This document shows positions 7,547 through 46,001 of a DNA stretch of 64,000 nt, one piece after another. The notes beneath the pieces were generated by a model, which was not told where the DNA came from, searched no databases, and saw only the letters and a program-made list of their open reading frames with translations. The stretch lies in sequence record OR780565.1; one strand, 5' to 3'. Position numbers and translations under genes: made by a program. This stretch comes from Escherichia phage DCP2. How positions within the stretch are numbered: position 1 is the first letter of the stretch; the number at the start of each line of letters is the position of its first letter.

Positions 7547-7801
7547 ATGATGCTAGTTAATAGAGAATATCAGTTTAAATCAGAAGAAGATTTGGAAAAA
7601 TTCGCAAGTGGTTGTGAACTGAATAGACGCACAGCTAAAGTCATAGGATTAAAACCCTTTACAGTTCTAGATTGTGAAGTTTCTAAATTCCGCAGAGGGT
7701 GTTCTATTAGCGGTCATGCTCTGGTTGATGGGAACACATTTTTCTTTGTTTTTAGCGTCAGAGAACTTTTATTGATTAACGAACTTGAGGAAATAAAATA
7801 G
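7547..7801 (+). CDS. hypothetical protein (84 aa)
   Basis: ORF with RBS GGAGAA, downstream of early promoter. Confidence 0.5.
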   Translation: MMLVNREYQFKSEEDLEKFASGCELNRRTAKVIGLKPFTVLDCEVSKFRRGCSISGHALVDGNTFFFVFSVRELLLINELEEIK

Positions 7802-14425: not shown

Positions 14426-14449
14426 CTTCTGAAGTATATGGAGGCTATC

Positions 14450-15073
14450 ATGATTATTAATCTTGCAGATGTTGAACAGTTATCTATAAAAGCTGAAAGT
14501 GTCGATTTTCAATATGATATGTATAAAAAAGTCTGTGAAAAATTTACTGACTTTGAACAATCAGTTCTTTGGCAATGTATGGAAGCCAAAAAGAATGAAG
14601 CTCTTCATCGGCAGTTGAATAAAATCGTTAAAAAGCATTTAACTAAATCACCTTATCAGCTATATCGTGGTATATCAAAATCGACAAAAGAGCTCATTAA
14701 AGATTTACAAGTTGGAGAAGTGTTTTCAACGAATAGAGTAGATTCATTTACTACTAGTTTGCACACAGCGTGCGGTTTTTCTTATGTTGAGTATTTCACT
14801 GAAATAATATTTCGCTTAAAAACTGATAAAGCTTTTAATTACTCTGACCATATCAGCGATATTATACTTTCTTCTCCTAATACTGAGTTTAAGTATACAT
14901 ATGAAGATACTGATGGATTAGATTCAGAACGTACTGATAACTTAATGATGATTGTGCGTGAACAAGAATGGATGATTCCAATTGGAAAGTATAGAATAAC
15001 TTCTATTTCAAAAGAAAAATTACACGATTCATTTGGAACATTTAAAGTGTATGATATTGAGGTAGTTGAATGA
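14450..15073 (+). CDS. modB: ModB-like ADP-ribosyltransferase
   Basis: 207 aa from ATG with GGAGG RBS; paralogous to following ORF; position and length as T4 modB. Confidence 0.6.
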   Translation: MIINLADVEQLSIKAESVDFQYDMYKKVCEKFTDFEQSVLWQCMEAKKNEALHRQLNKIVKKHLTKSPYQLYRGISKSTKELIKDLQVGEVFSTNRVDSFTTSLHTACGFSYVEYFTEIIFRLKTDKAFNYSDHISDIILSSPNTEFKYTYEDTDGLDSERTDNLMMIVREQEWMIPIGKYRITSISKEKLHDSFGTFKVYDIEVVE

Positions 15074-15672
15074 AATATTCAGCAATGCAATTAAAAGATT
15101 TTAAAATCAAATCAATGGATGCATCGGTGCGTGCTTCTATTCGTGAAGAATTACTTTCTGAAGGATTTAATTTATCTGAAATTGAACTTTTAATTCATTG
15201 TATTACTAATAAGCCAGACGACCACTCTTGGTTAAATGAAATAATCAAATCTCGTTTGGTTCCAAACGATAAACCTCTTTGGAGAGGTGTTCCAGTTGAG
15301 ACTAAGCAGGTGTTAAATCAAGGAATTGATATTATTACATTTGATAAAGTAGTATCAGCTTCATATGATAAAAATATAGCTCTACATTTTGCTTCTGGAT
15401 TAGAATACAATACACAAGTTATTTTTGAATTCAAAGCTCCTATGGTATTTAATTTTCAGGAGTATGCTATAAAAGCTCTACGTTGTAAAGAATATAGTCC
15501 GAGTTTTAAATTTCCAGATAGCCATCGCTATCGTAATATGGAATTAGTTTCAGATGAACAAGAAGTAATGATACCAGCTGGAAGTGTATTTAGAATTGCG
15601 GATAGATATGAGTATAAAAAGTATTCAACATACACTATCTATACTCTTGATTTTGAAGGATTTAATCTATAA
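15070..15672 (+). CDS. modA: ModA-like ADP-ribosyltransferase
   Basis: 200 aa; paralog of preceding ORF; ATGA overlap. Confidence 0.6.
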   Translation: MKYSAMQLKDFKIKSMDASVRASIREELLSEGFNLSEIELLIHCITNKPDDHSWLNEIIKSRLVPNDKPLWRGVPVETKQVLNQGIDIITFDKVVSASYDKNIALHFASGLEYNTQVIFEFKAPMVFNFQEYAIKALRCKEYSPSFKFPDSHRYRNMELVSDEQEVMIPAGSVFRIADRYEYKKYSTYTIYTLDFEGFNL

Positions 15673-16535: not shown

Positions 16536-16847
16536 ATGTTTTATGTATATGCGATAGTGTATAGAGATAAAGATGGATTTGCGGTGCCTGTTCCTCTTGA
16601 TGAACATCGTCCTGCTATATTTTTTGAAAGGGAGATTGCTGATAAAGTATTTACAACTCTTAAAGAGCAGTATCAACTAGCTTTAGGTATGGGAATTCCG
16701 AGATTAGTCGAGACTCCACGCAAGTTTTGGTTTAATAAAATAGAAGTTAAACATGTTAAGCCTGATGTAGACACACAAAGATTATATCGGCGAATTTTAG
16801 ATACTGGGCGTATTGTTAGTATACCAATTGCAGGGAATTTACGATGA
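16536..16847 (+). CDS. hypothetical protein (103 aa)
   Basis: ORF with GAGG RBS directly upstream of dda. Confidence 0.5.
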   Translation: MFYVYAIVYRDKDGFAVPVPLDEHRPAIFFEREIADKVFTTLKEQYQLALGMGIPRLVETPRKFWFNKIEVKHVKPDVDTQRLYRRILDTGRIVSIPIAGNLR

Positions 16848-18163
16848 CATTTGATGATTTGACCGAAGGCCAGAAAAATGCCTTTAACATTGTTATGAGG
16901 GCTATTAAAGAAAAGAAACATCATGTAACTATTAATGGACCTGCTGGTACTGGTAAGACTACTCTTACTAAGTTCATCATTGAAGCTTTAATATCTACGG
17001 GCGAAACTGGCATTATTTTAGCAGCTCCTACTCATGCAGCTAAAAAGATTCTTTCAAAACTATCAGGGAAAGAAGCGAGTACTATTCACAGTATTCTTAA
17101 AATTAACCCTGTAACATATGAAGAAAACGTTCTTTTTGAACAAAAAGAAGTACCGGATTTGGCTAAATGCAGAGTATTAATCTGTGACGAAGTGTCAATG
17201 TATGATAGAAAGCTATTTAAAATTCTGCTTTCAACTATCCCGCCATGGTGTACTATAATTGGAATAGGCGATAATAAGCAAATTAGACCTGTTGACCCAG
17301 GAGAAAATACTGCTTATATCAGTCCATTTTTTACGCACAAAGATTTTTATCAGTGTGAACTCACTGAAGTTAAACGCAGTAATGCTCCTATTATTGATGT
17401 AGCTACTGATGTTCGTAACGGTAAGTGGATTTATGATAAAATTATTGATGGGCATGGAGTACGTGGATTTACCGGTGATACCGCTTTACGCGATTTTATG
17501 GTAAATTATTTTTCAATCGTAAAATCACTAGATGATTTGTTTGAAAATCGTGTGATGGCATTTACGAATAAATCTGTTGATAAGTTAAATAGCATTATTC
17601 GTAAAAAGATTTTTGAAACTGATAAAGATTTTATTGTCGGTGAAATTATTGTAATGCAGGAACCATTAATTAAAACATATAAAATTGATGGAAAGCCTGT
17701 GTCAGAAATTATTTTTAATAACGGACAATTAGTTCGTATTATAGAAGCAGAGTATACATCAACATTTGTTAAAGCTCGTGGTGTTCCTGGAGAATATCTA
17801 ATTCGTCATTGGGATTTAACAGTAGAAACTTACGGCGATGATGAATATTATCGTGAAAAGATTAAAATAATTTCATCTGATGAAGAGCTGTATAAGTTTA
17901 ACCTATTTTTAGGTAAAACTGCAGAAACTTACAAAAATTGGAATAAAGGCGGAAAGGCTCCATGGAGTGATTTTTGGGATGCTAAATCACAGTTTAGTAA
18001 AGTGAAAGCACTTCCTGCATCAACATTCCATAAAGCTCAGGGTATGTCTGTAGATCGTGCTTTCATCTATACACCTTGTATTCATTATGCAGATGCTGAA
18101 CTAGCACAGCAGCTTCTTTATGTTGGTGTCACTCGTGGTCGTTATGATGTGTTTTACGTATGA
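16844..18163 (+). CDS. dda: Dda DNA helicase (SF1B)
   Basis: 439 aa; Walker A GPAGTGKT; near-identical to T4 Dda. Confidence 0.93.
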   Translation: MTFDDLTEGQKNAFNIVMRAIKEKKHHVTINGPAGTGKTTLTKFIIEALISTGETGIILAAPTHAAKKILSKLSGKEASTIHSILKINPVTYEENVLFEQKEVPDLAKCRVLICDEVSMYDRKLFKILLSTIPPWCTIIGIGDNKQIRPVDPGENTAYISPFFTHKDFYQCELTEVKRSNAPIIDVATDVRNGKWIYDKIIDGHGVRGFTGDTALRDFMVNYFSIVKSLDDLFENRVMAFTNKSVDKLNSIIRKKIFETDKDFIVGEIIVMQEPLIKTYKIDGKPVSEIIFNNGQLVRIIEAEYTSTFVKARGVPGEYLIRHWDLTVETYGDDEYYREKIKIISSDEELYKFNLFLGKTAETYKNWNKGGKAPWSDFWDAKSQFSKVKALPASTFHKAQGMSVDRAFIYTPCIHYADAELAQQLLYVGVTRGRYDVFYV

Positions 18164-18184
18164 TTAAATTTGAGGAAGCTATTC

Positions 18185-18430
18185 GTGGAAATAACTAAAG
18201 ACCAGTTTTATCTACTTCAAGATAAAGTGAGCGAAATTTATGAAATAGCTTATAGTAAAAATTGTACAAATGTAAAAATTAAATCAGGCAAGTTAATGCT
18301 TCAACTAGAAGAAATTGAACGAGATTTGATTGCGTTAGAATTCTTTTGTGGTGAAGTGAAAACTGTTACAATCAGTGATTACGTTTTAGGTGAAATTAGC
18401 CATCTTTATAAGGCGGTTATTAATGATTGA
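18185..18430 (+). CDS. hypothetical protein (about 81 aa)
   Basis: Probable GTG start 7 nt after GAGGAA; track lists TTG start at 18170. Confidence 0.45.
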   Translation: MEITKDQFYLLQDKVSEIYEIAYSKNCTNVKIKSGKLMLQLEEIERDLIALEFFCGEVKTVTISDYVLGEISHLYKAVIND

Positions 18431-18665
18431 ATTAAGTTTGCATCAGTTTAAATCTCTTATGACAAATGTTAAAGCTGTCATTCAAGAAAATTCAGGACCT
18501 GATAATGTTACTATTCGCGAAAAAGCTTTAAAGATAGTATACAGTCTTGAAGAGATACAAAAAGATATTGAATCTATGGCAAAATTTATTGATGAGCCCA
18601 TTAATAAAGTTTATATCCAAGATTATACTGTAGGTCAAATTCGCGATTTAGCGAGGAAAATTTAA
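18423..18665 (+). CDS. hypothetical protein (80 aa)
   Basis: ATG overlapping upstream stop. Confidence 0.45.
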   Translation: MIELSLHQFKSLMTNVKAVIQENSGPDNVTIREKALKIVYSLEEIQKDIESMAKFIDEPINKVYIQDYTVGQIRDLARKI

Positions 18666-19348
18666 TGTTTGATTTTATTATAGATTTTGAAACAATGGGA
18701 AGCGGTGAAAAAGCAGCTGTTATTGATTTGGCTGTTATTGCCTTTGACCCTAACCCAGAAGTAGTTGAAACATTTGATGAATTAGTTTCACGCGGCATTA
18801 AAATCAAATTTGATTTAAAAAGCCAAAAAGGACAACGTCTTTTTACTAAAAGCACCATCGAATGGTGGAAAAATCAGTCTCCTGAAGCTCGAAAAAATAT
18901 TGCACCGTCAGATGAAGATGTAAGCACTATCGATGGTATTGTAAAATTTAATGATTATATCAATGCGCATAATATCGATCCTTGGAAATCTCAAGGCTGG
19001 TGTCGTGGAATGTCGTTTGATTTTCCAATTTTAGTCGATCTCATTCGCGATATTCAACGTCTTAATGGCGTTTCTGAGAATGAACTTGACACATTTAAGT
19101 TAGAACCATGTAAATTCTGGAATCAGCGTGATATTCGTACCAGAATTGAAGCACTTCTCCTTGTTCGTGATATGACCACGTGTCCTCTTCCAAAGGGAAC
19201 TTTAGATGGATTCGTTGCACATGATTCTATTCATGACTGTGCGAAAGACATCCTGATGATGAAGTATGCTTTGCGCTATGCTATGGGTCTTGAAGATGCT
19301 CCATCAGAGGAAGAATGCGATCCTCTGTCTCTTCCAACAAAACGATAA
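18665..19348 (+). CDS. dexA: DexA exonuclease A (DnaQ-like 3'-5' exonuclease)
   Basis: 227 aa; DEDD-type motifs (FDFETMG); position after dda. Confidence 0.8.
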   Translation: MFDFIIDFETMGSGEKAAVIDLAVIAFDPNPEVVETFDELVSRGIKIKFDLKSQKGQRLFTKSTIEWWKNQSPEARKNIAPSDEDVSTIDGIVKFNDYINAHNIDPWKSQGWCRGMSFDFPILVDLIRDIQRLNGVSENELDTFKLEPCKFWNQRDIRTRIEALLLVRDMTTCPLPKGTLDGFVAHDSIHDCAKDILMMKYALRYAMGLEDAPSEEECDPLSLPTKR

Positions 19349-19411: not shown

Positions 19412-19912
19412 ATGAAAATTTATCGTGTTGAATCATCGTTTAGTATTCTTGATTATGAAGATGCTATAACAATACGTCGAAATCTTTGTGTTCAAATAAC
19501 GCCGTACAGGAGTATAATAGATTCATGGAGCGAAGAGTGGCTATTACACGTAGGTTATGACAGACCTAATTTTATGCATCATAGCGATAATAATAAAAGA
19601 ATTCCTTTACCACACGAAGATAAACTATTAGTTAAAAACGCTAATATAGTAATTAATACTAAGTTCAAGAAAGATTATGTTGGATTAGAATATCATATTC
19701 CAGGATGGTTTATAGCTCTTTATCATTTTGCTTTCGCTAGTGAATATGATATGATGAGATGGTTCACACGAGAAGAGCGGGAAGAATTATCTTCTAAAGG
19801 ATTTTATCTCGCTGTATACGAAGTTCCAGATGATCAAGTTATCATTGGCGGGCACCAAGTAATGTTCCGCAAATCGCATGCTGAACTCATAGATTTTATT
19901 GAAATGAGATAA
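19412..19912 (+). CDS. hypothetical protein (166 aa)
   Basis: ATG after GAGGA RBS downstream of promoter (track start 19373 lies upstream of the promoter). Confidence 0.5.
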   Translation: MKIYRVESSFSILDYEDAITIRRNLCVQITPYRSIIDSWSEEWLLHVGYDRPNFMHHSDNNKRIPLPHEDKLLVKNANIVINTKFKKDYVGLEYHIPGWFIALYHFAFASEYDMMRWFTREEREELSSKGFYLAVYEVPDDQVIIGGHQVMFRKSHAELIDFIEMR

Positions 19913-19914
19913 TT

Positions 19915-20460
19915 ATGAAATTTAATTATAATCCTGAATACACACCAAATCCGGTAGCTAAACTGATTGATTTTGATGTTGTAAGCACTTATGTATGCCC
20001 TGTTAAACCACTGGAAATTAAGGAACCTACTATGACTACCACTATTGAAATCGGCAAAACCTACAAACTGGTTGAACCTAAAATTAAAACTAATGCCTTG
20101 ATTTCTGGTCATAAAACTCTGACTGATGTTTTTGGCGAAGGCGAATTTATTGTTGAAGAATTTGCCAAAAGTGAGTGGTTTGACAAATCTTACGTCATCC
20201 ACAGTCGCCGGTTAGATAATAACAAAATAAAGAAAAACCTGGTTTATGAAGATGAGTTCATCCTGTTCCAAGAAGTTGAAGAACAAGACCCTACAGACCT
20301 GTTGTGTGCTGCTGTGTCTATCCGTCGTCCTTTTGATAATCCTATCTGTGGTTGGGTAACAGACCAGTGGGTTGAAGACGGTGTTGAGCTTCTGAACGTT
20401 GTCCATGCAGGAGATTTTAGTGTAGTACCTCGTAGTGCGGTGGTAGCTATTTTAAATTAA
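19915..20460 (+). CDS. hypothetical protein sharing a C-terminal domain with MotB (181 aa)
   Basis: C-terminal WVTDQWVEDGVELLNVV is repeated in the next gene. Confidence 0.55.
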   Translation: MKFNYNPEYTPNPVAKLIDFDVVSTYVCPVKPLEIKEPTMTTTIEIGKTYKLVEPKIKTNALISGHKTLTDVFGEGEFIVEEFAKSEWFDKSYVIHSRRLDNNKIKKNLVYEDEFILFQEVEEQDPTDLLCAAVSIRRPFDNPICGWVTDQWVEDGVELLNVVHAGDFSVVPRSAVVAILN

Positions 20461-20462
20461 TA

Positions 20463-20492
20463 GTTTACAAACTCTTGGGACCAGAGTATAAT
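20463..20492 (+). promoter_or_regulatory. T4-type early promoter
   Basis: GTTTAC 20463-20468, TATAAT 20487-20492 flanked by GGACCA / TGGTCC inverted repeat. Confidence 0.6.
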
Positions 20493-20536
20493 GGTCCTGT
20501 GGAGTATAAAATCTTTTTAACAAGTGAGAGATAACT

Positions 20537-21025
20537 ATGATTATTAATATTGGTGAAATTGCTCGTGTATCTGATAAATCCCGTTCTAAAGCAGCAGGAA
20601 AATTGGTCGAAATTGCAAGCATTCAGCTTAAACATGGCGTTAAAGATGAAGATTCTGAAGTAAAAGTGCGTATCATTCCTAAAGATGGAAAGTCTAAACC
20701 TCAGTTTGGCTATGTTCGTGCGAAATTTCTTGAATCTGCGTTTTTGAAAGCTGTTCCTGCTAAAGGAATTGAAACGATTGATACTTCACATGTAGGTGTA
20801 GACTTTAAGTGGAAACTCGGTCAGGCTATTAAGTTCATTGCTCCTCATGAATTTAAATTTATCAAAGATGGTGGTGCGGCTGTTTATACTCGTGCTATGT
20901 GCGCATACATTACTGATCAGTGGGTAGAAGATGGTGTTAAGCTGTACAACGTGGTATTTTTAGGAACATACAAAGTCATTCCTGAAAGCTGGATTAAACA
21001 CTATAGCAAAGCTCTCTATGCATAA
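20537..21025 (+). CDS. motB: MotB-like protein (162 aa)
   Basis: 162 aa, position between dexA cluster and gene 39 as in T4. Confidence 0.55.
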   Translation: MIINIGEIARVSDKSRSKAAGKLVEIASIQLKHGVKDEDSEVKVRIIPKDGKSKPQFGYVRAKFLESAFLKAVPAKGIETIDTSHVGVDFKWKLGQAIKFIAPHEFKFIKDGGAAVYTRAMCAYITDQWVEDGVKLYNVVFLGTYKVIPESWIKHYSKALYA

Positions 21026-21055
21026 AGTTTAAAATTTTTTCATAAAACTATATAC

Positions 21056-21098
21056 ATCAGTAGTTGATTATGGTACTATATCAATATCAACTACTGAT
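21056..21098 (+). repeat. 13-bp perfect inverted repeat enclosing a promoter -10-like element
   Basis: ATCAGTAGTTGAT (21056-21068) and ATCAACTACTGAT (21086-21098) separated by 17 nt containing TATGGTACTATATCAAT. Confidence 0.8.
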
Positions 21099-21197
21099 AC
21101 AGAAAACAACTTAGAGAATAAAATGGAAAATTTGCCAAAGGTGCTGCTACTCTTCTGAAACGCATCACTCCAATGTTCAATTAATGAGGAAATTGTA

Positions 21198-21413
21198 ATG
21201 AAACGTAAAATTGTTCAGAACTGCACTAATGACGAATTTGAAGATGTATTATTTGATCCAGATTTGGTAGTGGTTCAAAAAGAACATACCGTTAAGTTTA
21301 CTCACTTGACTTCGGTTTATGTGTATGAAAAGGTTGGTGATAAACAACCAATTTATGGCGTATTTCGTGAAATTACTGAAGATGGCACAACTTACTGGAA
21401 GGAAATTTATTAA
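21198..21413 (+). CDS. hypothetical protein (71 aa)
   Basis: GAGGAAA RBS. Confidence 0.5.
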
Positions 21414-21832
21414 TGGCTATTAGATTTGAAGTTAATAAATGGTATCAATTTAAAAATAAACAAGCTCAAGAAAATTTTATTAAAGACCATACTGATAACA
21501 GAATCTATGCACGACGTTTAGGTATGGAACCTTTTAAAATTTTAGATGTTGACTATTACGGGCGTCCTACTAAAATTGTGACATCTACTGGCATAATTGG
21601 ATATTCAACATATGGTACAGTCATTGACGAAAACTTTATCTGGCTCTCTACTAACGAAGCTGGGTTCTTTGATGAAGTGGAAAATCCATATCAGGTTGCT
21701 GAAGAACAAGAGCAGGAAGAGCAAGAACAAATAGAAGATTTCACAGAATTCCCGGTAATGAAAGTTACTATTGAAAATAATGAACAGGCATGGTCCTTGT
21801 ATCAGATGTTGAAAGCACACTTTAAGGAATAA
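21413..21832 (+). CDS. hypothetical protein with acidic EQ-rich segment (139 aa)
   Basis: ATGA-type overlap with upstream ORF. Confidence 0.5.
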
Positions 21833-22013: not shown

Positions 22014-22385
22014 ATGTTTAAAATTGGTAAGAAATATCGTGTTCGCGAAGGTGAAGAAAAGAAATATCTACTTTCTTCTATTTATAGGAATGGTTCTATT
22101 AATGCCGTAATATCTACAAGCGAATTTATCGTTGAAGATATGAAAGGCCATAATGTTACAATGATTAGTACAGCATCTGGAAATGATGGAAAAATTCTTC
22201 ACAGTTTTCAGAGTAATGTTCTAATTTATGATGAAGAATTTGACTTCTTCGAAGAAGTTCCTGAAGATTTTGATTTTGAATGCACTATCACTATGAAATC
22301 TGGTGACCCTCTTTCTTTTACAGTTAAAGATGAAAGAAGTCGCTTGAGAATTATTAGTCTCCTTCAAGCCATTAAATTTGAGTGA
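22014..22385 (+). CDS. hypothetical protein (123 aa)
   Basis: ORF packed tightly after the preceding gene. Confidence 0.5.
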   Translation: MFKIGKKYRVREGEEKKYLLSSIYRNGSINAVISTSEFIVEDMKGHNVTMISTASGNDGKILHSFQSNVLIYDEEFDFFEEVPEDFDFECTITMKSGDPLSFTVKDERSRLRIISLLQAIKFE

Positions 22386-22667: not shown

Positions 22668-22719
22668 AGCTTTATGATTACTGGAGTATAATATTCCCGA
22701 AACCAAACGAGGATAAGTG

Positions 22720-24537
22720 ATGATTAAGAATGAAATTAAAATTCTGAGCGATATTGAACATATCAAAAAGCGTAGCGGCATGTACATTGGTTCTTCTGCT
22801 AATGAAATGCATGAGCGCTTTCTGTTTGGTAAATGGGAAAGTGTTCAGTATGTACCTGGTCTTGTTAAGCTTATTGATGAAATTATCGATAACTCAGTAG
22901 ATGAAGGTATTCGTACTAAGTTTAAATTCGCAAATAAAATTAATGTTACCATTAAAAATAATCAGGTAACAGTTGAAGATAACGGTCGTGGTATTCCACA
23001 GGCGATGGTTAAAACACCTACCGGTGAAGAAATTCCTGGTCCTGTTGCTGCCTGGACTATTCCAAAAGCAGGTGGTAACTTTGGTGATGATAAAGAACGC
23101 GTCACCGGCGGTATGAACGGTGTTGGTTCTAGTTTAACTAACATTTTTTCTGTGATGTTTGTCGGTGAAACTGGCGACGGTCAAAATAATATTGTGGTTC
23201 GCTGCTCGAATGGCATGGAAAATAAATCATGGGAAGATATTCCTGGAAAATGGAAAGGAACTCGCGTTACTTTCATTCCTGATTTTATGTCATTTGAAAC
23301 TAATGAGCTATCTCAAGTTTATCTTGACATTACACTAGATCGTCTCCAGACACTTGCGGTAGTTTATCCTGATATTCAATTTACCTTTAATGGTAAAAAG
23401 GTTCAGGGTAATTTTAAGAAATATGCACGCCAATATGATGAACATGCTATTGTTCAAGAACAAGAAAATTGTTCTATTGCGGTTGGTCGTTCACCGGATG
23501 GTTTTCGTCAATTAACATACGTCAATAACATTCATACTAAGAATGGTGGCCATCACATTGACTGTGTTATGGATGATATTTGTGAAGACCTTATTCCACA
23601 AATCAAACGTAAATTCAAAATTGATGTAACTAAAGCACGTGTTAAAGAATGTTTGACTATCGTTATGTTTGTCCGTGATATGAAAAACATGCGATTTGAT
23701 TCTCAAACTAAAGAGCGTTTGACTTCTCCATTTGGTGAAATTCGTAGTCATATTCAGCTTGATGCTAAAAAGATTTCACGTGCTATTTTGAATAATGAAG
23801 CAATTTTAATGCCAATCATTGAAGCTGCTTTGGCTCGTAAATTGGCGGCAGAAAAAGCAGCAGAAACTAAAGCAGCTAAAAAGGCTTCTAAAGCTAAGGT
23901 TCATAAACATATTAAAGCGAATCTTTGTGGTAAAGATGCTGACACTACTCTTTTCTTGACTGAGGGTGATTCTGCTATTGGATATCTTATTGATGTTCGT
24001 GATAAAGAACTTCATGGTGGTTATCCATTGCGTGGTAAAGTTCTTAACAGTTGGGGTATGTCATATGCTGATATGCTTAAAAACAAAGAACTATTTGATA
24101 TTTGCGCAATCACTGGATTAGTTCTTGGTGAAAAAGCTGAAAACTTGAATTATCATAATATTGCAATTATGACCGATGCTGACCATGATGGTCTAGGAAG
24201 CATTTATCCTTCTCTGCTCGGATTTTTTAGTAATTGGCCAGAATTGTTTGAACAAGGAAGAATTCGCTTTGTCAAAACTCCTGTAATCATCGCTCAGGTA
24301 GGTAAAAAACAAGAATGGTTTTATACAGTCGCTGAATATGAGAGTGCTAAAGATGCTCTACCTAAACATAGCATCCGTTATATTAAGGGACTTGGCTCTT
24401 TGGAAAAATCTGAATATCGCGAGATGATTCAAAACCCAGTATATGATGTTGTTAAACTTCCTGAGAACTGGAAAGAGCTTTTTGAAATGCTCATGGGAGA
24501 TAATGCTGACCTTCGTAAAGAATGGATGAGCCAGTAG
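22720..24537 (+). CDS. 39: DNA topoisomerase II large subunit gp39, uninterrupted (605 aa)
   Basis: GHKL ATPase and TOPRIM regions in a single ORF that includes the part encoded by separate gene 60 in T4. Confidence 0.92.
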   Translation: MIKNEIKILSDIEHIKKRSGMYIGSSANEMHERFLFGKWESVQYVPGLVKLIDEIIDNSVDEGIRTKFKFANKINVTIKNNQVTVEDNGRGIPQAMVKTPTGEEIPGPVAAWTIPKAGGNFGDDKERVTGGMNGVGSSLTNIFSVMFVGETGDGQNNIVVRCSNGMENKSWEDIPGKWKGTRVTFIPDFMSFETNELSQVYLDITLDRLQTLAVVYPDIQFTFNGKKVQGNFKKYARQYDEHAIVQEQENCSIAVGRSPDGFRQLTYVNNIHTKNGGHHIDCVMDDICEDLIPQIKRKFKIDVTKARVKECLTIVMFVRDMKNMRFDSQTKERLTSPFGEIRSHIQLDAKKISRAILNNEAILMPIIEAALARKLAAEKAAETKAAKKASKAKVHKHIKANLCGKDADTTLFLTEGDSAIGYLIDVRDKELHGGYPLRGKVLNSWGMSYADMLKNKELFDICAITGLVLGEKAENLNYHNIAIMTDADHDGLGSIYPSLLGFFSNWPELFEQGRIRFVKTPVIIAQVGKKQEWFYTVAEYESAKDALPKHSIRYIKGLGSLEKSEYREMIQNPVYDVVKLPENWKELFEMLMGDNADLRKEWMSQ

Positions 24538-35760: not shown

Positions 35761-36417
35761 TTATTTAGCCCTTCCTAATATTCTGGCCGCCTGAGAACAT
35801 ATTGATTCAAGGCGGTCATTACTTATATGATCATTTCTATACCAGTACATGGTTATTGTTCCAGCATAGATATTATCCAAATTGAAATATGGACAACTGT
35901 ACATGTAATTTATTTCGGGAGTAGGCTTTTTAGTTGGTAAAAAAGCAAATTTTGAGTCGGAATAATAATGACGTCCATTTAAATGAACTGCATATTCATC
36001 CATAGTTTTATCAACAGGATATCCTCCAAGTGATTTTTCACTTATTGTTGAAGGTAATTTTCCTTCATATGCTATAATATCAACAAAATAGTTTAAGTTT
36101 TTAGGGCGGAAAGAATACACCGCACTAAAGTCTGCCTCAGATGATATATGAACTATCTGGAGTTGTTCCAGGGCGACAGATTCAAAGCGTGCATTTCTTT
36201 CCTTTTCAATAATTTCACTGTATGTTTCATACTTTGATTGCTTATAGTACTCAAAGAAACTATCTCCCCTATACCAAACAATCGCCATTATAAACAAAAG
36301 AATTACGACAGCTACCCGGGAAGCAAGAACTTTCCCGGTAGCATTATCTTTGAACAAGCGATCTAGAACACCAAACAGAATATCAGAGGGCGAAAATGAT
36401 ATTCTAGGTGCTGCCAT
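35761..36417 (-). CDS. t: holin T
   Basis: 218 aa; N-terminal TM helix then large periplasmic domain; matches T4 holin. Confidence 0.9.
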   Translation of the reverse strand: MAAPRISFSPSDILFGVLDRLFKDNATGKVLASRVAVVILLFIMAIVWYRGDSFFEYYKQSKYETYSEIIEKERNARFESVALEQLQIVHISSEADFSAVYSFRPKNLNYFVDIIAYEGKLPSTISEKSLGGYPVDKTMDEYAVHLNGRHYYSDSKFAFLPTKKPTPEINYMYSCPYFNLDNIYAGTITMYWYRNDHISNDRLESICSQAARILGRAK

Positions 36418-36447
36418 AGACCCTCCTTTTAAGGGTATTTATTCACA

Positions 36448-37242
36448 TTATACTCTTGGACCATATATTGCTCCAACATTTTGCCATGTCGGTGTAGACC
36501 CTATGACGGCATAACCAGCAGCTCCGCCATCGTATTCATATCCTTGACCACGAATATTACATCTACCTCCTGCGGAGCCAACTTCACCACCAGACCCGCC
36601 GTTGTAGATACCGTTCACAGACCCTGCGCCTGGCGAAGAAATAGTACCAGCAGTTGCTCCTGATTGCATATCAATAGATCCGCCCGGTGCGCCAAACGGA
36701 CGACCGCCGCCACCGCCAAAGGTCAATCTCATTCGTGAAAAAGGAGAATAATACCCGCCGCCGCCACCGCCGCCGCCGCCAGCAATAGCTCCGCCATTAT
36801 TAATTCTTAGTCTCCCACCAATATCATTTTGAATACAATGACCCCCAGCTGAGCCAGGACTATTGCTACCGCCATTCCCGCCACGGCCATACATCGTTAC
36901 ACCATGTATGTTCAACTGAACATATTCATTCGGTGTATCTCCGTACATGAAGAATAAAGGAACATCTTTAGAATATGATACTAAATCTCCAGTGATATTA
37001 AACACTATAGGTGCACTACCTGCCTCAAAACATCTATCTCGGAACCATTGACCATTGAAGTTATGGTCTGCTCCAAGCGTGTGAATAATTTCTCTTGAGC
37101 GACCTGCAAATTGACTCATCCAGCAAGGAACACCCAATCTTAATTGACCAGCCGCTTGACTCATCCATCGTTGTCCTGTTTCATTTACAGATGAACTTCC
37201 AATCCAACCGGGAACACCAACTACTGCCATAATTTTCTCCAA
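36448..37242 (-). CDS. 38: gp38 tail-fibre adhesin, T2-type with glycine-rich motifs
   Basis: 264 aa; conserved N-terminal part then poly-Gly runs ([23 protein letters not shown]) separating variable segments. Confidence 0.85.
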
Positions 37243-37262
37243 AGGGGCAAAGCCCCTTGTTG

Positions 37263-40211
37263 TTAGAATTTAAAATAATTACTAATTTTGCGAGCAATTT
37301 TAGTGAAGAAAGGCGTTTTCAATTCTTTAATTTCTTCACTCATTTCCTGAATAGCCTTAATTAAAAGAGCATTCACAGCAGAGTTAGAAATTGTCAGAAC
37401 ATCAGATCCATCAACTTCAACTTTAGATACAGCTTCCGGTAATTCCTTTTCAAGGTCCTGAGCAATAATACCAACTTCACGTTTAATAACACTACGGTCT
37501 TTAATAGACTTAACTTTATCGTAAATATAAACTTTCAGTCGGCAAACTTTTTCGACCGCTCCATATTCTAATTCTTCTTTATTAATCTTGAGACGGGAGT
37601 CAGAACGAATATACACATCGCTAAAGCTACCATTTCCTGGTGTATAAAAGAATCCATCATGATGGAATTCAAACACAGCTTGTGGGTGTCCAGCATCAGG
37701 AGAAGCCTCCGTGGATCCGACACGAATGATTGCTTGCCCCCACTGTGATGGAATACGACGCATACCAAAGTCAACAGCGGTGCTATATCCTTGATTGGTT
37801 ATAACGCTTCTTGCTTTAAGAATAGGATAATAACAATCCTGTGAAACATAACCATGATCAACGAATAATGGAGCTTCTACTCGCCATTGGTTGCCCCAAT
37901 CACCCGGTTGTCTAGCAATCCATCCAGAACCGTTAATGTGTACACGATCGCGGTTAACGTTAACCATTGCGATATTTTGTGGATTTAGCGAAATCTCACC
38001 ATTGTTTGTGATATGTACTGCCGCCTGAGTAGCATAGCTATAAAATGCTAGCGAATTATCAGCACCACCCTTACCAATATACCAGTTACCAGTCCCGTCT
38101 ATATCACCGCGAATATGCAAAGAATTACTAGCAGTTGTTGATAATACAATAGCATCATTAGGTGTATTGATTGTTAACCGACCTGTCATCGTATCACCGC
38201 TTTTACCTACGCGAGTATTCAAAGCAGCGTCTAAGTTGGTTGCATTGTTGTATTTCTTCCAGATTGAACCAGCAATGTTACCATCAGTGTTCAAGAATGC
38301 TGCGCCAGCATAAACTCGGCTTTGTGACATGAATCGGCCAGACGGCAAGAAACGCCATGTAGCTAATTCATTAGCTGTAGTTCCAGTAGCGGATAAATCA
38401 CCTTGAGCAATGATACGATATTCTGAACTAGCAATATCCATACCAGAAGCCATAGTAATATTTGTTACAGTGTTTTTCTGTTTTACAATAGGAGCAAACT
38501 GGTTTTTATTTGAATCGTCAATGGCCTGATATAATGGCGCAATAGTAGTATTCTGATTTGCGTAAGTATTTGAACCAGAACCGCTAGCAGGGCCTTGAAT
38601 ATATGCTCCAGGAGCAATTGAAATTTTCTTATTAGCACCAAGATTAATATCAGCGGTGATATTTAGCAATCCCCTAAAGTTTTGTTGAGCAGTCCAAGTA
38701 TGTGATCCGTCTTCAAGAACAACACGGCGACAAGTGTTAGTCCTGTTTCCTGGATTTCCAGCTATACGCACAACAAAATAACGGTAGTTTGTCTGGGATA
38801 CAGTACCACGCCAAACCTGAACAGTACGTCCTGTGCCAGTATGTTCGCTAGGACCAACAGAAAACATAATTAAGTTTCCGTCAATCGTACCCCAATTCAT
38901 ATTTGCTGGCATGTTCTTTATTTTGTTCAAAGGAACGCTAAACATACTACCAGGGACAAAATCAAAGGTTTGCCAATCTAACTCCGCTAATTGAGCTTTA
39001 ATACCACCCATACCCAAAGTAATTGGCAGAGAATAAGATGTATATACTTCGTTCCATGCACCCCACGCACCACCAGTATATGCACGCTCAAAAATACGAT
39101 CGCGAGTAGTTGCACCCGTTCCTGCGGTAGTGAAACGTTGGAAAATAGCACCGCCAGAAGCACGCTGTTTAACTTCCAGCAAACCAACAATAACAGTCGG
39201 CAAACCTTCACCTGTAGGACAGTTAATAACGGCATCAGTGCCTAAAATATTATATAACCCGGGAGTTTTAAAATCATTCAGATCTCCATCATAGAAAGTC
39301 GCTGGTGTGCCATGACCAACCTGCTTCCATTCCTCCCACTTAGGTGCACTAGCATCCCATGCAGCAGCGAGACAACGAGTATAAACCATACCCATGCGGG
39401 TAGTATAACGCTGAGTTCTCGCGTATAAACCACCTTCAAATATTTCTAAAAATCCTTGTGCGGCTGATCCTTCTTCTGGATAATGGCGATCAAATGATGC
39501 GATTGCGCTTGAACTGTTTCGCCATAAGCCACAATGTTCTAACTCTCCCAAGCTATCAAGGTCAATCGTTTGTGAAAGTGGACGAGTTGACGCTTGAACA
39601 TTACGCCACACACCCCATGGACCATCGACGCCATTCCATTTAGCAGATAAGGAACGAATATAGACGTTACCAGATCTTACAGTATAACGCTGAGTGCCAG
39701 CAAATTGGCCGGCCACAAACACTTCTAGTACACCTACGGCATTTTCTTCTGGGAATTTATTTGCTGGTTGCGCATTTGTTGAAGTAGATTTCGACCAAAC
39801 ACCAAGATATTCTTCAATGGGCCCATACGTATCTAAATTAGCATCAGTAGGTAATTCGCCATTATTTTTTATAAATGTTGTGCTATTGACATTTATGTCA
39901 GATGGAGTTAAGGTAATGTCCTTTGACCCATCAAAAGATATACCATTAATTTTCCTAGGTGTTTGCAATTTAGTAGCTGTGCTAGAATTTCCAATTAAAG
40001 TTCCAGTTATATTTTCTGTAACCTCTAAAGACCCATTTATAGTTCCTCCATATTTTAAACCTAATTCTATAACACTACCTGAGTCATCTTTTGTGAAAAT
40101 TGTTTTATCTTTTAAGTTTATAGCCAATTCACCTTCGGCTAATACTGAAGCAGCAGGACGTTGACCTGCAGTTTTGCTTCTTTTAAATTGTATTTGTTTT
40201 AAAGTAGCCAT
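37263..40211 (-). CDS. 37: gp37 long tail fibre distal subunit
   Basis: 982 aa; C-terminal region with SDSRLK and [15 protein letters not shown], resembling the intramolecular-chaperone domain of T2-type gp37. Confidence 0.85.
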
Positions 40212-40219
40212 AAGTCCTC

Positions 40220-40870
40220 TTAATAATAGCCGAAATCTTGAACAGAATCCTTAATTACGATTTGGTCAAATCGTGGAACGTGTGAAGGTTGAGATGCAGG
40301 ATTCTGTGAAAAAAGGTTTGGCGCAGTTAAATTTCCTGTCATAGTGTCTCCAGAGCGTAATACCCTAGAGTTTGCATTTGCTGTAACAGTATTTATTGCT
40401 CCATCAACATAATCTTTGCGAGTAACATCAGATGCTGCGGAAGGAGTAGATGTAACAGTTACAGATGGAGCCTTTACAGCTTTGGTGAATGTTGTCAAAC
40501 CTTCTGGCGTAATAGTAATTTGTCCAGTAGTGATTTCACTACCTGCAGGTCTAAAACTAATACCGCCAGAAGAGCCACCAACTACAAGAGTATTGCCGGT
40601 ACCGCCACCAGAACGAATTCGGATAGGGGTTTCATTATTACTTAATTGAAGATAACTATTTACCCCGTAATTAATAGTAATTGGACCGGTGTAAGTACCA
40701 CCATTAGCTTTAGAAACGAAATCGTTATCAGCTGCCTGCGGTTTATTATATTCTGAATATATTTTAAATGATTTGTAGAGTACATCGTCACCGGCTGAAT
40801 TCAATGGAAAATTTCCTTGATGCCAAATGACAGATCCACCCACAGTTGAACCTACTTTTAAATCAGCCAT
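40220..40870 (-). CDS. 36: gp36 long tail fibre hinge/distal connector
   Basis: 216 aa, between 35 and 37. Confidence 0.8.
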
Positions 40871-40893
40871 TATATGCCCCTTTATTTTAATAT

Positions 40894-40901
40894 TATTTAT
40901 A
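40894..40901 (-). promoter_or_regulatory. T4 late promoter (TATAAATA) for gene 36
   Basis: Minus-strand TATAAATA about 24 nt upstream of gene 36 ATG. Confidence 0.6.
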
Positions 40902-40903
40902 AA

Positions 40904-40926
40904 GAAAAAGGGAACCCAAAGGCTCC
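40904..40926 (-). terminator. hairpin plus U tract after gene 35
   Basis: Minus-strand GGGAGCC-TTTG-GGTTCCC (one G.U pair) followed by TTTTT. Confidence 0.45.
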
Positions 40927-40932
40927 CTCAGT

Positions 40933-42048
40933 TTAAACTTCTCTAAATTCTTGCCCAAACACTTTGCCAGTTTTAGAAGAGGCTTGTGTAGGAAGTACCA
41001 TTATATCTGGAGGTGAAGCCGATTCACAGACATAATTAACGCGAATACCGTTGACGCCAAATTCGGCAGGTTTTGAAATGCCGCCATTTCTTGATACTTC
41101 AGAAAAACTTAAATTTCTCATGCCGCCTTGACCTGCTTGAGCAGTTCTTTGTGCATATATCGTAAATCCTACGGCGTTTTCTGGAACAACTACATAGTCT
41201 TCTTTTAATTCCCAAGACCCAGCTTGCCCAGTAAACTCAGCTTGGGTCGAGGAAATATATCCATTTGATGCATCATAAAAACGAATAGATATATTTGTAG
41301 TTCCAAGATCAAGTAAATCAGCATCAGCATATAACTGTGCTTTAAGATAAAGAACATCACCAGGAATTAAATTATAATCAGATAGTTTACTTATAGCAGC
41401 TGAAGTTGGTAATCGCGCAATTTCGTTATTAGTTCCACCAACCGCTGACATAAATTGCTCGACACTTTCATATGTTCTTTTAGGAAATCCCGTAGCTCCG
41501 ACGTCTTCTAAACTATCAAATACAACATCTAAAATAGTTTGATAATCATCTGTGCTTTTTCTATTACTTAGTTTAACATGCTCTAATGCAATAGCTCTTT
41601 TAGAAGAAGTATAAAAAGCAGCATATGATACGTCAAATCTTGACAATACGGAATCTGATGGAAAAACTGAAGTTCCTGCTCCTTTTAACCAAGATACCAC
41701 TTCAGGAGGAAAATTAACCTTTCCACTAGTTAATATAGCAACAAGTCTATTGTTTGACAAAGAATTCATGAAACTAACAAAAGCAGCTGATGTAGTATTA
41801 TTTGAAGTAGAAAAAGCATATGACTTACTATCAACTAATGCTCCCGTAGAAGGGTCAAAAACTCTTAAATGAAGACCTGCACTAAATGTTTGATTTCCAA
41901 CGGGATTATCCTGAAATTTAACATATGGCCCCGCAGTAGAAAGCGGGCAAGAACCCGCTATGCTTATTTTATATCTTACTGAATTGCTTTCCGATAAAAA
42001 TGGCGTTTGGACATATCCTTGTCCAAACTCTGCCATAAATTTTTCCAT
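40933..42048 (-). CDS. 35: gp35 long tail fibre hinge
   Basis: 371 aa, between 34 and 36. Confidence 0.8.
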   Translation of the reverse strand: MEKFMAEFGQGYVQTPFLSESNSVRYKISIAGSCPLSTAGPYVKFQDNPVGNQTFSAGLHLRVFDPSTGALVDSKSYAFSTSNNTTSAAFVSFMNSLSNNRLVAILTSGKVNFPPEVVSWLKGAGTSVFPSDSVLSRFDVSYAAFYTSSKRAIALEHVKLSNRKSTDDYQTILDVVFDSLEDVGATGFPKRTYESVEQFMSAVGGTNNEIARLPTSAAISKLSDYNLIPGDVLYLKAQLYADADLLDLGTTNISIRFYDASNGYISSTQAEFTGQAGSWELKEDYVVVPENAVGFTIYAQRTAQAGQGGMRNLSFSEVSRNGGISKPAEFGVNGIRVNYVCESASPPDIMVLPTQASSKTGKVFGQEFREV

Positions 42049-42056
42049 AATACCTC

Positions 42057-45000
42057 TTATTCAACCCATTCAAATTTAACAGTTTTATTCACTGGGTCAG
42101 GAATAATGCGAACATTACCAATTCGTAAGAAATCGCGAATAGTAAGATTACCTATTATTCCATTATCAGATGGGATCGCTCCTATATCTGAAGGTTGAGG
42201 AGGGTTACCTCCGTCAAATACCTGAACAAAACTTGACCAAGAGTTTTTGGTTTTCTGCCATGTACGTGTCCAGCGAGTGGTACGTGCTTCTGGGGTCGTT
42301 GGATAAGTAATCCAATCTTGGTAAAGTGAATCAAGTGTGTTACCAAACTGAGTCAATGTACCAGGAGATTTAACTTCTTCACCACGTTCTAAGTATGGAA
42401 GTCCAGTAACTTCATTAGTTTTTTCAACCATTTTAAAATAACCCGGGAACTGGTTATAAGTGGCTGAATCATTAATATCGATTGACCAGAATCCTACAGT
42501 ATCAGATGTCGGCGCACGGGTATATAAATCAGATGTTTTAACACCTTGAGAACGAATTCTCGAGTTAACAGTTAAACCACCTGAATTTATAGTAGCACCT
42601 TTAGCAATGATCAAGCTTTCACCAATTGTGACCTGCCCAGATTGATTATTAATGGACAATGGACGTAATCCATTAAATCCACCAGTTTGATTGCCTGATG
42701 CAGTAAGCATAAAATTCGTTACTGACCCGTCATTACGAATAATGAAACCATAATTTCCATTAATAGCACGGAAAGCATTTGCGCTTCGAGAAATAATTTC
42801 ACCAGTTGCAGTGACTGAATTACCAAATGTAGCAACGCCATTCGCATTCAATGTTCCTGAAGCATTAACATTTATCGGTGTTACTGTACCATTGATATTA
42901 AATGTTATATTTCCAGCTTTATTACGCTGAGAATAAAAATGACTAGAAGTTTCATCACTAACTTCAAATACAGTAGAACGTGTTGTGTCCGATTCACCGC
43001 TGAATTGATTTCCCCACACTCTGACTGTCATCGTCTGTACCGGGTTAGTTCCAGTTTGAGGTCCTTTCTCAAAAATCAGACGAGTTGCCGTTCCAGTATT
43101 AGAAATAGTTAATGCACTATTTGCCGAAACTGATCCACCAAACGTAGCAGTACTAGATGATACAAGAGGGGCACTCAGATTCGTTTGTTGTGTTAAGGTT
43201 AGTGAACCATTAACCGTCTGCGCAATATCCCTACGAATGAACTGGAGTGAATCTAGACCATCTAATAAATTACTATCTACGGCTTTTGCTTTTAATGGCA
43301 AATAATTTGCTAATACGCGATTTAATTCATATGGTGATACTGCATAACCATTTTTCTCATATGATTCTAATGGCTGTGTTGAACCAGCTGTATCATTACC
43401 AACGAATGTAATTGAACCAGACGAAGTTTTAACAAAACCTCTTATCGCAGTAGTCGCTGCCCAAGTAGGTTCACTCTGCACAATCCATTTTAAATTTTTT
43501 GGAGATACAGCAGTATTTGCTGACGTTCCAGCTACAGTTTCAGACCGAGTTGCAACTTTAATAACGCCTTCCTGTGCTTCAGTAGATTTAGTACCTAAAA
43601 GCTTTTTAGGAGTTATTAGAACATTATCCAATGTTCCTGCAGCAGCTTCAACTTGTGTAGCTACACGAAGTGTACCACGCTGTGTCTCATTTGCTTCAAG
43701 AATATTAAGGGTATAATGGTCCCAGAGAGTTCCTGATTCAACTAATCCAGATAGAGCAACAACAGAAGTACGATCAGTACTATTAAATCTGGTTTTAATT
43801 TTTAATGGTGTAGAGATACGAGTATCGTCGACGCCTGCGTCGAATTCAACTTGTGTAGCAATTTCAGCTATACCACTTAAACTTTCAGTTGCTATACGGT
43901 CATTTAAAGTTTTCGGAGTGACTGCACGAGTATAATCAGTTCCTGTATTAACTTCACTTTGCGTAGCAATTTCAATTAAACCAATTCTTGCATCAGTTGA
44001 TGTCTTTTTATGTAACGTTTCTGGCGTTACAACCGCATTTGCCCATCCTTCTTGGCTTTGTCCAGCAATTACTTCACTTTCAACTGCTAAAATTACTGCG
44101 CCTTGTTGCGTTGGAGTAGCTTTATACTGATCCAAAGCTTTAGGTGAAACAACTAAATTATTAGTGTTTTTATTATAAACATTTGTACCATTTAATTCAC
44201 GACTAGAGGCTGGAGTAGCTCCTGCGGTAGATACAAAAGTTACAATACCCGATAATGTTTCAGAACCTTGACGAGCTTGAAGCTTTTTAGGAGTGATGAT
44301 TGTAGTATCATCGATACCTGTATTAGTTTCCTGCTGCGTAGCAATTTCAGCAACACCTCTGCGAGTTTCTGTAGCAGTTCTTTCATTCAGCTTTTTAGGA
44401 GTGATGATAAGGTCATCAGCAAAAGAGAATGTAGTGTTCTGATTTACTTGAGCAGTAGTTGCTATTCTTGCGATACCTCTGCGAGTTTCTGTAGCAGTAC
44501 GATTAGCTAACGTTTCTGGAGTAATTGCCAATTCTTTTTGTGGAGAATTTTCTAAATCAGCATTTGCTTGAGCTTGTGTAGCTAAAGCAATTACGCCTAA
44601 TCTTGCTCTAGTAGAATTATTTAAAGAATCGACTCTTTCAACTGTTGGAACGTTTTGTTGTACAACCCAGTATTTTCCATCAGAATCTTCTATATAAGCA
44701 AGTTGTAAAACTGGAACATAATTAGTTTCACCGTTAAAAACTAATTCCTGTACAGTCACCCATTCAGCTTCAGGTGGATATTCTGAACGTTTTGGGAATT
44801 GCAGCAATTGAACTGAAGAAGCAATTTTATCTTCACCGGCGGCTTTGATTTTAACTGTTTGTCCTTTTCTCATGTAATTCATGGAAATTTTAACAGTATC
44901 ACCAACAGAAATATCAGTCGGAAGCTGAAGTTCAATTGTTTGGGCTGTTCCGTTATTCGCACCAAATACCATAACTTCTTCATTTGGACGAATGTTAGAA

Positions 45001-45926: not shown

Positions 45927-45960
45927 TCTCCCGGGCTCCTATTGTGTTTTCAATAATAAG

Positions 45961-45968
45961 TATTTATA
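45961..45968 (-). promoter_or_regulatory. T4 late promoter (TATAAATA) for gene 34
   Basis: Minus-strand TATAAATA about 35 nt upstream of gene 34 ATG. Confidence 0.6.
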
Positions 45969-45971
45969 CTT

Positions 45972-46001
45972 GTTTACTTTAAGATTTGGATAGTATATAA
46001 T
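45972..46001 (+). promoter_or_regulatory. T4-type early promoter for rnh
   Basis: GTTTAC 45972-45977, TATATAAT about 17 bp downstream. Confidence 0.6.

Follow-up and report, generated by a model that had tools for sequence, protein, structure and literature searches.

The DNA analysed here, referred to as the window, is a 64-kb (64,000-nt) stretch of a Tequatrovirus genome. The region studied is collinear with phage T4, and its DNA identity to many Tequatrovirus genomes reaches 97.5%. Genes in the window were named from the T4 reference annotation and by BLASTP. In order, the genes are dda (16844–18163), dexA.2 (18170–18430), dexA.1 (about 18423–18665), dexA (18665–19348), motB.2 (19412–19912), an ORF of 181 aa in the slot that motB.1 occupies in T4 (19915–20460, plus strand), motB (162 aa; 20537–21025, plus strand), cef (21198–21413), and goF (21413–21832). 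Downstream of goF lie 39.2, a 123-aa ORF that is not present in T4, a 39.1-like ORF, and an unsplit gene 39 of 606 aa. The order motB.2, 181-aa ORF, motB, cef is the same in T4, ESCO58, RB55, and RB51. An assignment of the 181-aa ORF as dexA.2 was ruled out by the T4 annotation, which places the ORF in the motB.1 slot.

The 181-aa ORF and motB are separated by 77 nt. This intergenic DNA, which is almost the same in T4, contains a promoter-like site of the sigma-70/T4-early type, TTTACA-17-TATAAT (20464–20492, plus strand), upstream of motB. The site, identified by its match to the consensus, agrees at 11 of 12 positions and was the top site of the region, in a scan that overall performed no better than the shuffled expectation (9 sites versus 8.3). 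Its position between both genes would agree with a separate early promoter for motB. Between motB and cef, 172 nt (21026–21197) are devoid of coding sequence. The corresponding interval of RB51 harbors another small ORF and a third gene (139 aa, "similar to motB") with the C-terminal domain described below.

Several other features were seen in the window. The adjoining and slightly overlapping genes dexA.2 and dexA.1 are paralogous from end to end, with 26% identity across 80 aa (E = 5e-9). Residues 7–47 of GoF are 39% identical (E = 1e-6) to an 84-aa ORF located 14 kb away (7547–7801), for which no Pfam match was found. Two further adjoining ORFs, 14438–15073 (211 aa) and 15070–15672 (200 aa), are likewise paralogues (27% identity in a 182-aa alignment, E = 5e-14). 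No Pfam match was found for either, and, going by the T4 gene order, they may be modA and modB. The large subunit of topoisomerase II (22717–24537) is encoded by one 606-aa ORF with GyrB, HATPase, and TOPRIM_C domains, compared to 516 aa for T4 gene 39. The block from 36001 to 46000 shows a reversal in the sign of the GC skew and a GC content climbing to about 0.42, as would fit a run of genes encoded on the other strand.

The protein encoded by the 181-aa ORF belongs to phrog_2333 (E = 1e-88), has more than 120 orthologues at 73–93% identity, and consists of a disordered N-terminal extension, an LSm-like barrel, and a C-terminal domain, hereafter the tail, which is shared with MotB. In the AF2 model, built from a 27-sequence alignment, the mean pLDDT was 73.8 and residues 1–40 were of low confidence. 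Within this extension, alignment A4 revealed a short conserved motif, LIDFDVVSTYVCPVKP (residues 17–32; 19963–20010, plus strand; pLDDT <50), of the general form [IV][IV]D.D[VI].S.Y..P..P. The motif precedes the barrel in the 181-aa protein, follows the barrel in the homologue P0235, and is located right before the tail in the single-copy KOW-type relatives described below, and a degenerate version, ETIDTSHVG, is found in the linker of MotB. The N-terminal barrel (residues 41–123; 20035–20283, plus strand) was modeled as a bent five-strand barrel spanning residues 44–122 (strands 49–52, 77–85, 92–99, 105–111, and 118–121; pLDDT about 85) with one long helix (60–73). The tail (residues 124–181; 20284–20457, plus strand), delimited by BLASTP, Pfam, hhalign, PHROG, and AF2, belongs to the DPTDLLC...CGWVTDQWVEDGVELLNVVHAGDFSVVPRS type and is acidic (net charge −5, pI 4.2). 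Its predicted strands are 133–136, 144–154, 157–164, 167–172, and, after a 3-10 turn, 176–180.

For the second gene, which had been labeled "motB-like" from its sequence, the Pfam family PF17613 matched over its full length (positions 1–162 of 162, E = 1.2e-105), as did phrog_1671 (1–166, E = 1.5e-76), and the protein is 94% identical to T4 MotB, which bears the label out. The AF2 model, built from a 30-sequence alignment (mean pLDDT 78.7), showed an all-beta domain on either side of a disordered linker. The N-terminal domain (residues 1–68; 20537–20740, plus strand) is a KOW/SH3-like barrel (strands 8–11, 23–30, 41–46, 56–61, and 65–67) with a basic net charge of +5; the KOW assignment follows PMC7827196. 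The linker (residues 69–87; 20741–20797, plus strand) varies in length within the family, as shown by big indels in alignment A3, and its pLDDT fell below 50 at residues 69–83. The second copy of the tail was delimited by BLASTP, hhalign, and AF2 to residues 88–162, which with the stop codon occupy 20798–21025 (plus strand), and its strands were predicted at 97–109, 115–131, 134–141, 144–149, and, after a 3-10 turn, 153–156 (pLDDT 82–93). A MotB-specific insertion, HEFKFIKDGGAAVYT (about residues 104–118; 20846–20890, plus strand), corresponds to 13 gap columns in the hhalign alignment and makes the beta1-beta2 hairpin longer than in the 181-aa model (strands 97–109/115–131 versus 133–136/144–154).

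The sequence-only reading had proposed that these two neighboring genes share a C-terminal domain, and both ORFs were recovered at the above positions with homologous tails. In a BLASTP comparison, residues 140–174 of the 181-aa protein aligned without gaps to residues 117–151 of MotB, with 18 of 35 positions identical and 25 of 35 similar (E = 4e-12). A comparison by hhalign of 16 orthologues of the 181-aa protein (alignment A1) with 30 MotB homologues (alignment A3, 40–94% identity) yielded one match of 51 aligned columns, spanning residues 129–179 of the 181-aa protein and 93–156 of MotB (probability 98.6%, E = 6.7e-16). The aligned region takes in the whole C-terminal domain of MotB, which contains 13 extra residues. 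Likewise, positions 88–160 of phrog_1671, the PHROG profile of MotB, matched residues 120–179 of the 181-aa protein (E = 5e-17), and PF17613 matched it at profile positions 117–153 only. In addition, bridging sequences from other phages (P0241–P0243) combine the DPTDLLC start of the motB.1-type tail with a MotB-like insertion. The peptides that had been quoted as the ends of both proteins turned out to be internal: the 181-aa protein goes on to ...RSAVVAILN, and MotB goes on to ...ESWIKHYSKALYA. The profile comparison and the AF2 models thus show that a whole domain of about 55–65 residues, and not a short peptide alone, is common to both proteins. As modeled, this unit forms an entire small beta-barrel of about 55 residues, or about 68 in MotB because of the hairpin insertion. 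Its core is the best-conserved part of both families: residues 145–174 of the 181-aa protein (20347–20436) have a mean pairwise identity of 97% within the family, against 74% for the barrel, and residues 122–151 of MotB (20900–20989) have a mean identity of 77%, against 53% for the KOW domain. A six-frame tblastn search of the whole 64-kb window with either tail detected just these two copies (E about 5e-11) and no third one, the next best match having an E value of at least 0.3.

A match of the 181-aa protein to MotB over the full length failed, and its N-terminal 120 residues matched neither PF17613 nor phrog_1671. The pI of the entire protein is 4.8, compared to 9.5 for MotB. The 181-aa protein carries a MotB-type tail but is not an orthologue of MotB. 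Its tail fits the MotB.1 type, DPTDLLC...GWVTDQW[IV]EDGVELLNVVHAG..SVVPRS, without the MotB insertion.

The N-terminal barrel of the 181-aa protein is linked in sequence to other small barrels of the region. It is 29% identical (BLASTP, E = 1e-4) to the 123-aa ORF of the window (22014–22385), and the 181-aa protein matched phrog_622 (E = 8e-4), the family to which this ORF belongs. The 123-aa ORF also matched the goF family phrog_13003 (E = 1e-6), and its resemblance to the 181-aa barrel extends over its first 84 residues; it is therefore a further member of the LSm-like barrel family. The N-terminal barrels of MotB.1, GoF, and Frd.2 were described as LSm-like in 2025 (PMC12152347), and that description concerns the part of the 181-aa protein that is not shared with MotB, rather than the duplicated tail. 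BLAST showed no similarity between the 181-aa protein and residues 1–63 of T4 MotB.1, the sequence links being indirect, via the 123-aa ORF and phrog_622. [quoted passage not shown]

The tail of the 181-aa protein is 58% identical to residues 64–115 of T4 MotB.1, and its remainder matched a continuation in the +1 frame in T4 and the 143-aa protein of RB55. In the T4 reference (NC_000866.4 = AF158101.6; 3792–4151, minus strand), MotB.1 is annotated with 119 aa, ending ...GWVTDQWIGRWR at a stop codon. The remaining 28 codons of the domain (EDGVELLNVVHAGEYSVVPRSAVVAILN, followed by two stop codons) are intact in the +1 frame within 150 nt downstream. Over 509 nt, the sole difference between the T4 reference and RB55 is one extra G (ATTGGAAG versus ATTGAAG), located inside the shared motif; in RB55, without the extra G, motB.1 is annotated as a 143-aa protein. 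Apart from the reference, 13 T4 or near-T4 records among the matches listed (99.6–99.8% identity), RB55 and 12 others, have a length of 508 nt, and not 509 nt. As RB55 lacks the additional nucleotide and the 12 others are shorter by one, the extra G is probably a reference error or a frameshift specific to one stock. A 2025 study reported MotB.1 as a 13.8-kDa protein and took the coordinates of its motB.1 amber construct from NC_000866.4 (PMC12152347); the word "frameshift" does not occur in the text of that study. Since 13.8 kDa is the size of the shortened 119-aa MotB.1, and given the origin of the coordinates, the MotB.1 of that study was probably missing the final 28 residues of the shared domain. 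Experiments on the 119-aa MotB.1 may thus have used an incomplete protein.

Both tails were modeled by AF2, from shallow alignments, as the same five-strand small barrel, with an identical strand order that includes a 3-10 turn ahead of the final strand; in the register given by hhalign, strands 2–5 of both models coincide, as do their 3-10 turns. The solved folds nearest to the 181-aa model were the tandem Tudor domain of 53BP1 (score 8.4) and the Tudor domain of PHF19 (8.3; 52 residues at 1.6 Å), followed by BAH, the ERCC6L2 Tudor domain, PWWP, and the Spt5 KOW domain. About 55 residues long, the predicted tail is built of five antiparallel strands, the fourth and fifth of which are separated by a 3-10 turn, as is characteristic of the SH3-like (Tudor/KOW) class. 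A helix between strands 3 and 4 of a five-strand barrel, which defines the OB fold, is absent from the models. The missing helix and the 3-10 turn before strand 5 therefore speak against the cold-shock OB fold that was assigned to the tail on the basis of HHpred (PMC7827196), and the topology of the tail, as modeled, is SH3-like rather than OB. The tail resembles Tudor, KOW, and PWWP domains (PHF19 Tudor, 6wau; ERCC6L2 Tudor, 6hq9; Spt5 KOW, 5ohq; NusG KOW) in structure only; the sequence identities are 10–23%, with no relationship found at the sequence level. An aromatic cage is not kept across both tail types, with Y137 and F141 of MotB corresponding to L160 and H164 in the 181-aa protein. 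Sequence searches of PDB chains with both proteins returned only insignificant matches (bL9, E = 0.2; a kinase, E = 0.56).

Among 50,697 phage records searched by tblastn, the tail was found at 1685 places in 780 records, usually two to three per genome. All 780 genomes are those of T4-like phages of enterobacteria, in which one to three genes arranged in tandem carry the tail. When 1.84 billion cluster representatives were searched exhaustively with an HMM, 26 proteins were retrieved. One of these, P0239, is a 1459-aa repeat protein that matched in 12 weak stretches at query positions 26–69; it was rejected as a repeat-summed artefact without the tail. The tail is C-terminal in every case, and the part preceding it differs, in at least five arrangements. 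These include a disordered extension plus a barrel, as in the 181-aa protein; two tandem barrels (251 aa); an additional N-terminal module (246–250 aa); the T4-type MotB.1 barrel (144 aa); a MotB-like KOW domain followed by a motB.1-type tail (126–199 aa); and MotB proper. A 43-aa metagenomic protein, P0246 (MKIYRVESSFSILDYEDGVELLNVVHAGDFSVVPRSAVVAILN), fuses the start of MotB.2 (its first 16–17 residues) to the final 28 residues of a motB.1-type tail and is a deletion remnant; a remnant of this type may be behind the "29-aa peptide" category of RB69 in PMC7827196.

The number of tail-bearing genes between dexA/motB.2 and cef is one in Marfavirus and Kanagawavirus, two in the window and T4, and three in RB51. 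The single gene, located between dexA (with or without motB.2) and cef in Klebsiella phage PWKp16 (Marfavirus) and Kosakonia phage 305 (Kanagawavirus), encodes a KOW N-domain and a motB.1-type tail, together with the D.DV.S.Y..P motif. Identity to the PWKp16 protein is 75% for the tail of the 181-aa protein and 30% for MotB over the full length (E = 2e-13).

The sequence-only reading had left two origins open, an old tandem duplication or domain shuffling, and both appear to have taken place. The occurrence of one, two, or three copies in tandem at one syntenic locus bears out the former, and the joining of the tail to at least five N-terminal arrangements bears out the latter. The event can also be called old, because over the 105 nt encoding the gapless alignment only 62 nt (59%) are identical and the third codon positions are near random, agreeing in 15 of 35 codons; the core is thus conserved in protein while its DNA has diverged, as had been stated. 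These values bear directly on whether a recent gene conversion, or recombination between the neighbors, homogenized a short segment, with no old domain duplication involved. The two genes are only 77 nt apart, the best-conserved stretch is short, 34 of 45 nt are identical in the 15-residue core, T4-like genomes are prone to recombination, and a deletion fusion of the motB.2 start with the tail end exists in P0246. However, the same codon is used at only 8 of the 18 identical residues and a different one at 10, the pair is detectable without a direct DNA repeat, and both tail types are distinct and each is conserved across hundreds of genomes. Because the conservation is seen in protein on diverged DNA, recent gene conversion is in practice excluded, and we regard this origin as extremely improbable.

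It is also conceivable that no duplication occurred in place and that two unrelated genes each acquired the tail via modular exchange among co-infecting phages. Such an origin would account for the several unrelated N-terminal modules that carry the tail, including the further modules of the 246–251-aa variants, and for the LSm-like barrel being located before the linker motif in the 181-aa protein and after it in P0235. Nevertheless, every copy examined lies in the one slot from dexA/motB.2 to cef, as one, two, or three tandem copies, and the single-copy outgroup proteins align with MotB over the full length. An in-place duplication followed by N-terminal replacement is the simpler account, making independent acquisition quite unlikely. 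According to the duplication account, the ancestor at the locus would have been a single gene in which a short D.DV.S.Y..P linker motif connected a basic KOW-like N-domain to the tail, and this gene would then have been duplicated in tandem. The motB copy would have retained the KOW domain, with its tail diverging and gaining the insertion, and in the motB.1-slot copy, which retained the near-invariant tail, the KOW domain would have given way to an acidic LSm-like barrel. Parsimony from two outgroup genomes, as distinct from a rooted tree, suggests this direction of evolution, and the single-copy state could also represent a loss.

As for function, non-specific DNA binding by MotB and its co-purification with H-NS/StpA have been published (PMC6070864, PMC7827196), with no domain dissection reported there. 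The motB.1-type tails are acidic: of the 27 aligned, 26 have net charges of −2 to −5 and one, P0240, has 0. The MotB tails average −1.4, and the MotB KOW domains are mostly at +4 to +9. As the tail is acidic and almost invariant, a module for partner binding or oligomerization is likelier than a DNA-binding surface, and DNA binding is most likely seated in the basic KOW domain of MotB. The tail would then be a constant module for partner binding or self-association, and the variable N-terminal module would provide the activity; in MotB, this would be non-specific DNA binding by the basic KOW domain, and in the 181-aa protein, a different activity of the acidic barrel. This role of the tail is deduced from charge and conservation. 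Overall, we assign a probability of about 0.6 to the reading that the two genes are paralogues of a family confined to T4-like phages, with an SH3-like C-terminal barrel, that they arose by duplication of a KOW-plus-tail gene and an N-terminal swap, and that the tail serves as a partner-binding or self-association module, the last being a proposed mechanism.

Two other functions of the tail were weighed against partner binding or self-association. Nucleic acids can be bound by SH3-like barrels, among them PWWP, KOW, and chromo-like domains, and the conserved W, Y, and F residues of the tail could stack on bases, both of which count against the partner-binding reading. The tail itself may thus bind nucleic acid, as its OB-fold/cold-shock-like description in the literature would imply, with MotB and the 181-aa protein both contacting DNA or RNA by the tail and the N-domains acting as modulators; given the acidic charge noted above, this appears somewhat unlikely. 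A more speculative proposal, which we consider doubtful, is that the tail is a phage-specific Tudor/KOW-like docking module that takes different "payload" barrels to one conserved target, and that the motB.1-type protein modulates or competes with MotB as a nucleoid-associated protein. The target may be, for example, H-NS/StpA-DNA filaments, RNA polymerase, or another tail; as payload, MotB would carry its basic, DNA-binding KOW domain, and the motB.1-slot protein its acidic LSm-like barrel. If the docking proposal were true, work on the "13.8 kDa" T4 MotB.1 would have missed the activity, because the construct was without the last 28 residues of the module.

That T4 MotB and MotB.1 have a conserved C-terminal domain in common and differ in their N-terminal domains was reported by Patterson-West et al. 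(Viruses 2021, PMC7827196), who also considered one of the two genes a possible duplicate of the other and sorted the homologues into categories by N-terminal domain. The pair in the window represents the same genes in the same slot, with the same C-terminal region in common. Pfam and PHROGs also pick up the relation between MotB and the 181-aa protein, and some GenBank records name the 181-aa-type protein "MotB domain-containing". As the common domain and the idea of a duplication have been in print since 2021, the finding as such was already known. What is added here is the extent of the domain, its SH3/Tudor-like instead of OB topology, the charge argument, and the polarity from the outgroups.

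These results present the pair as a textbook case of tandem duplication followed by an N-terminal domain swap in the "non-essential" early region of T4-like phages, for which the single-copy KOW-plus-tail genes of the outgroup genera hint at the evolutionary direction. In addition, the shared unit is modeled as a complete SH3/Tudor-like barrel, with an acidic charge in one of the paralogues, which speaks against a DNA-binding OB fold in MotB and in favor of the basic KOW domain as the DNA binder.
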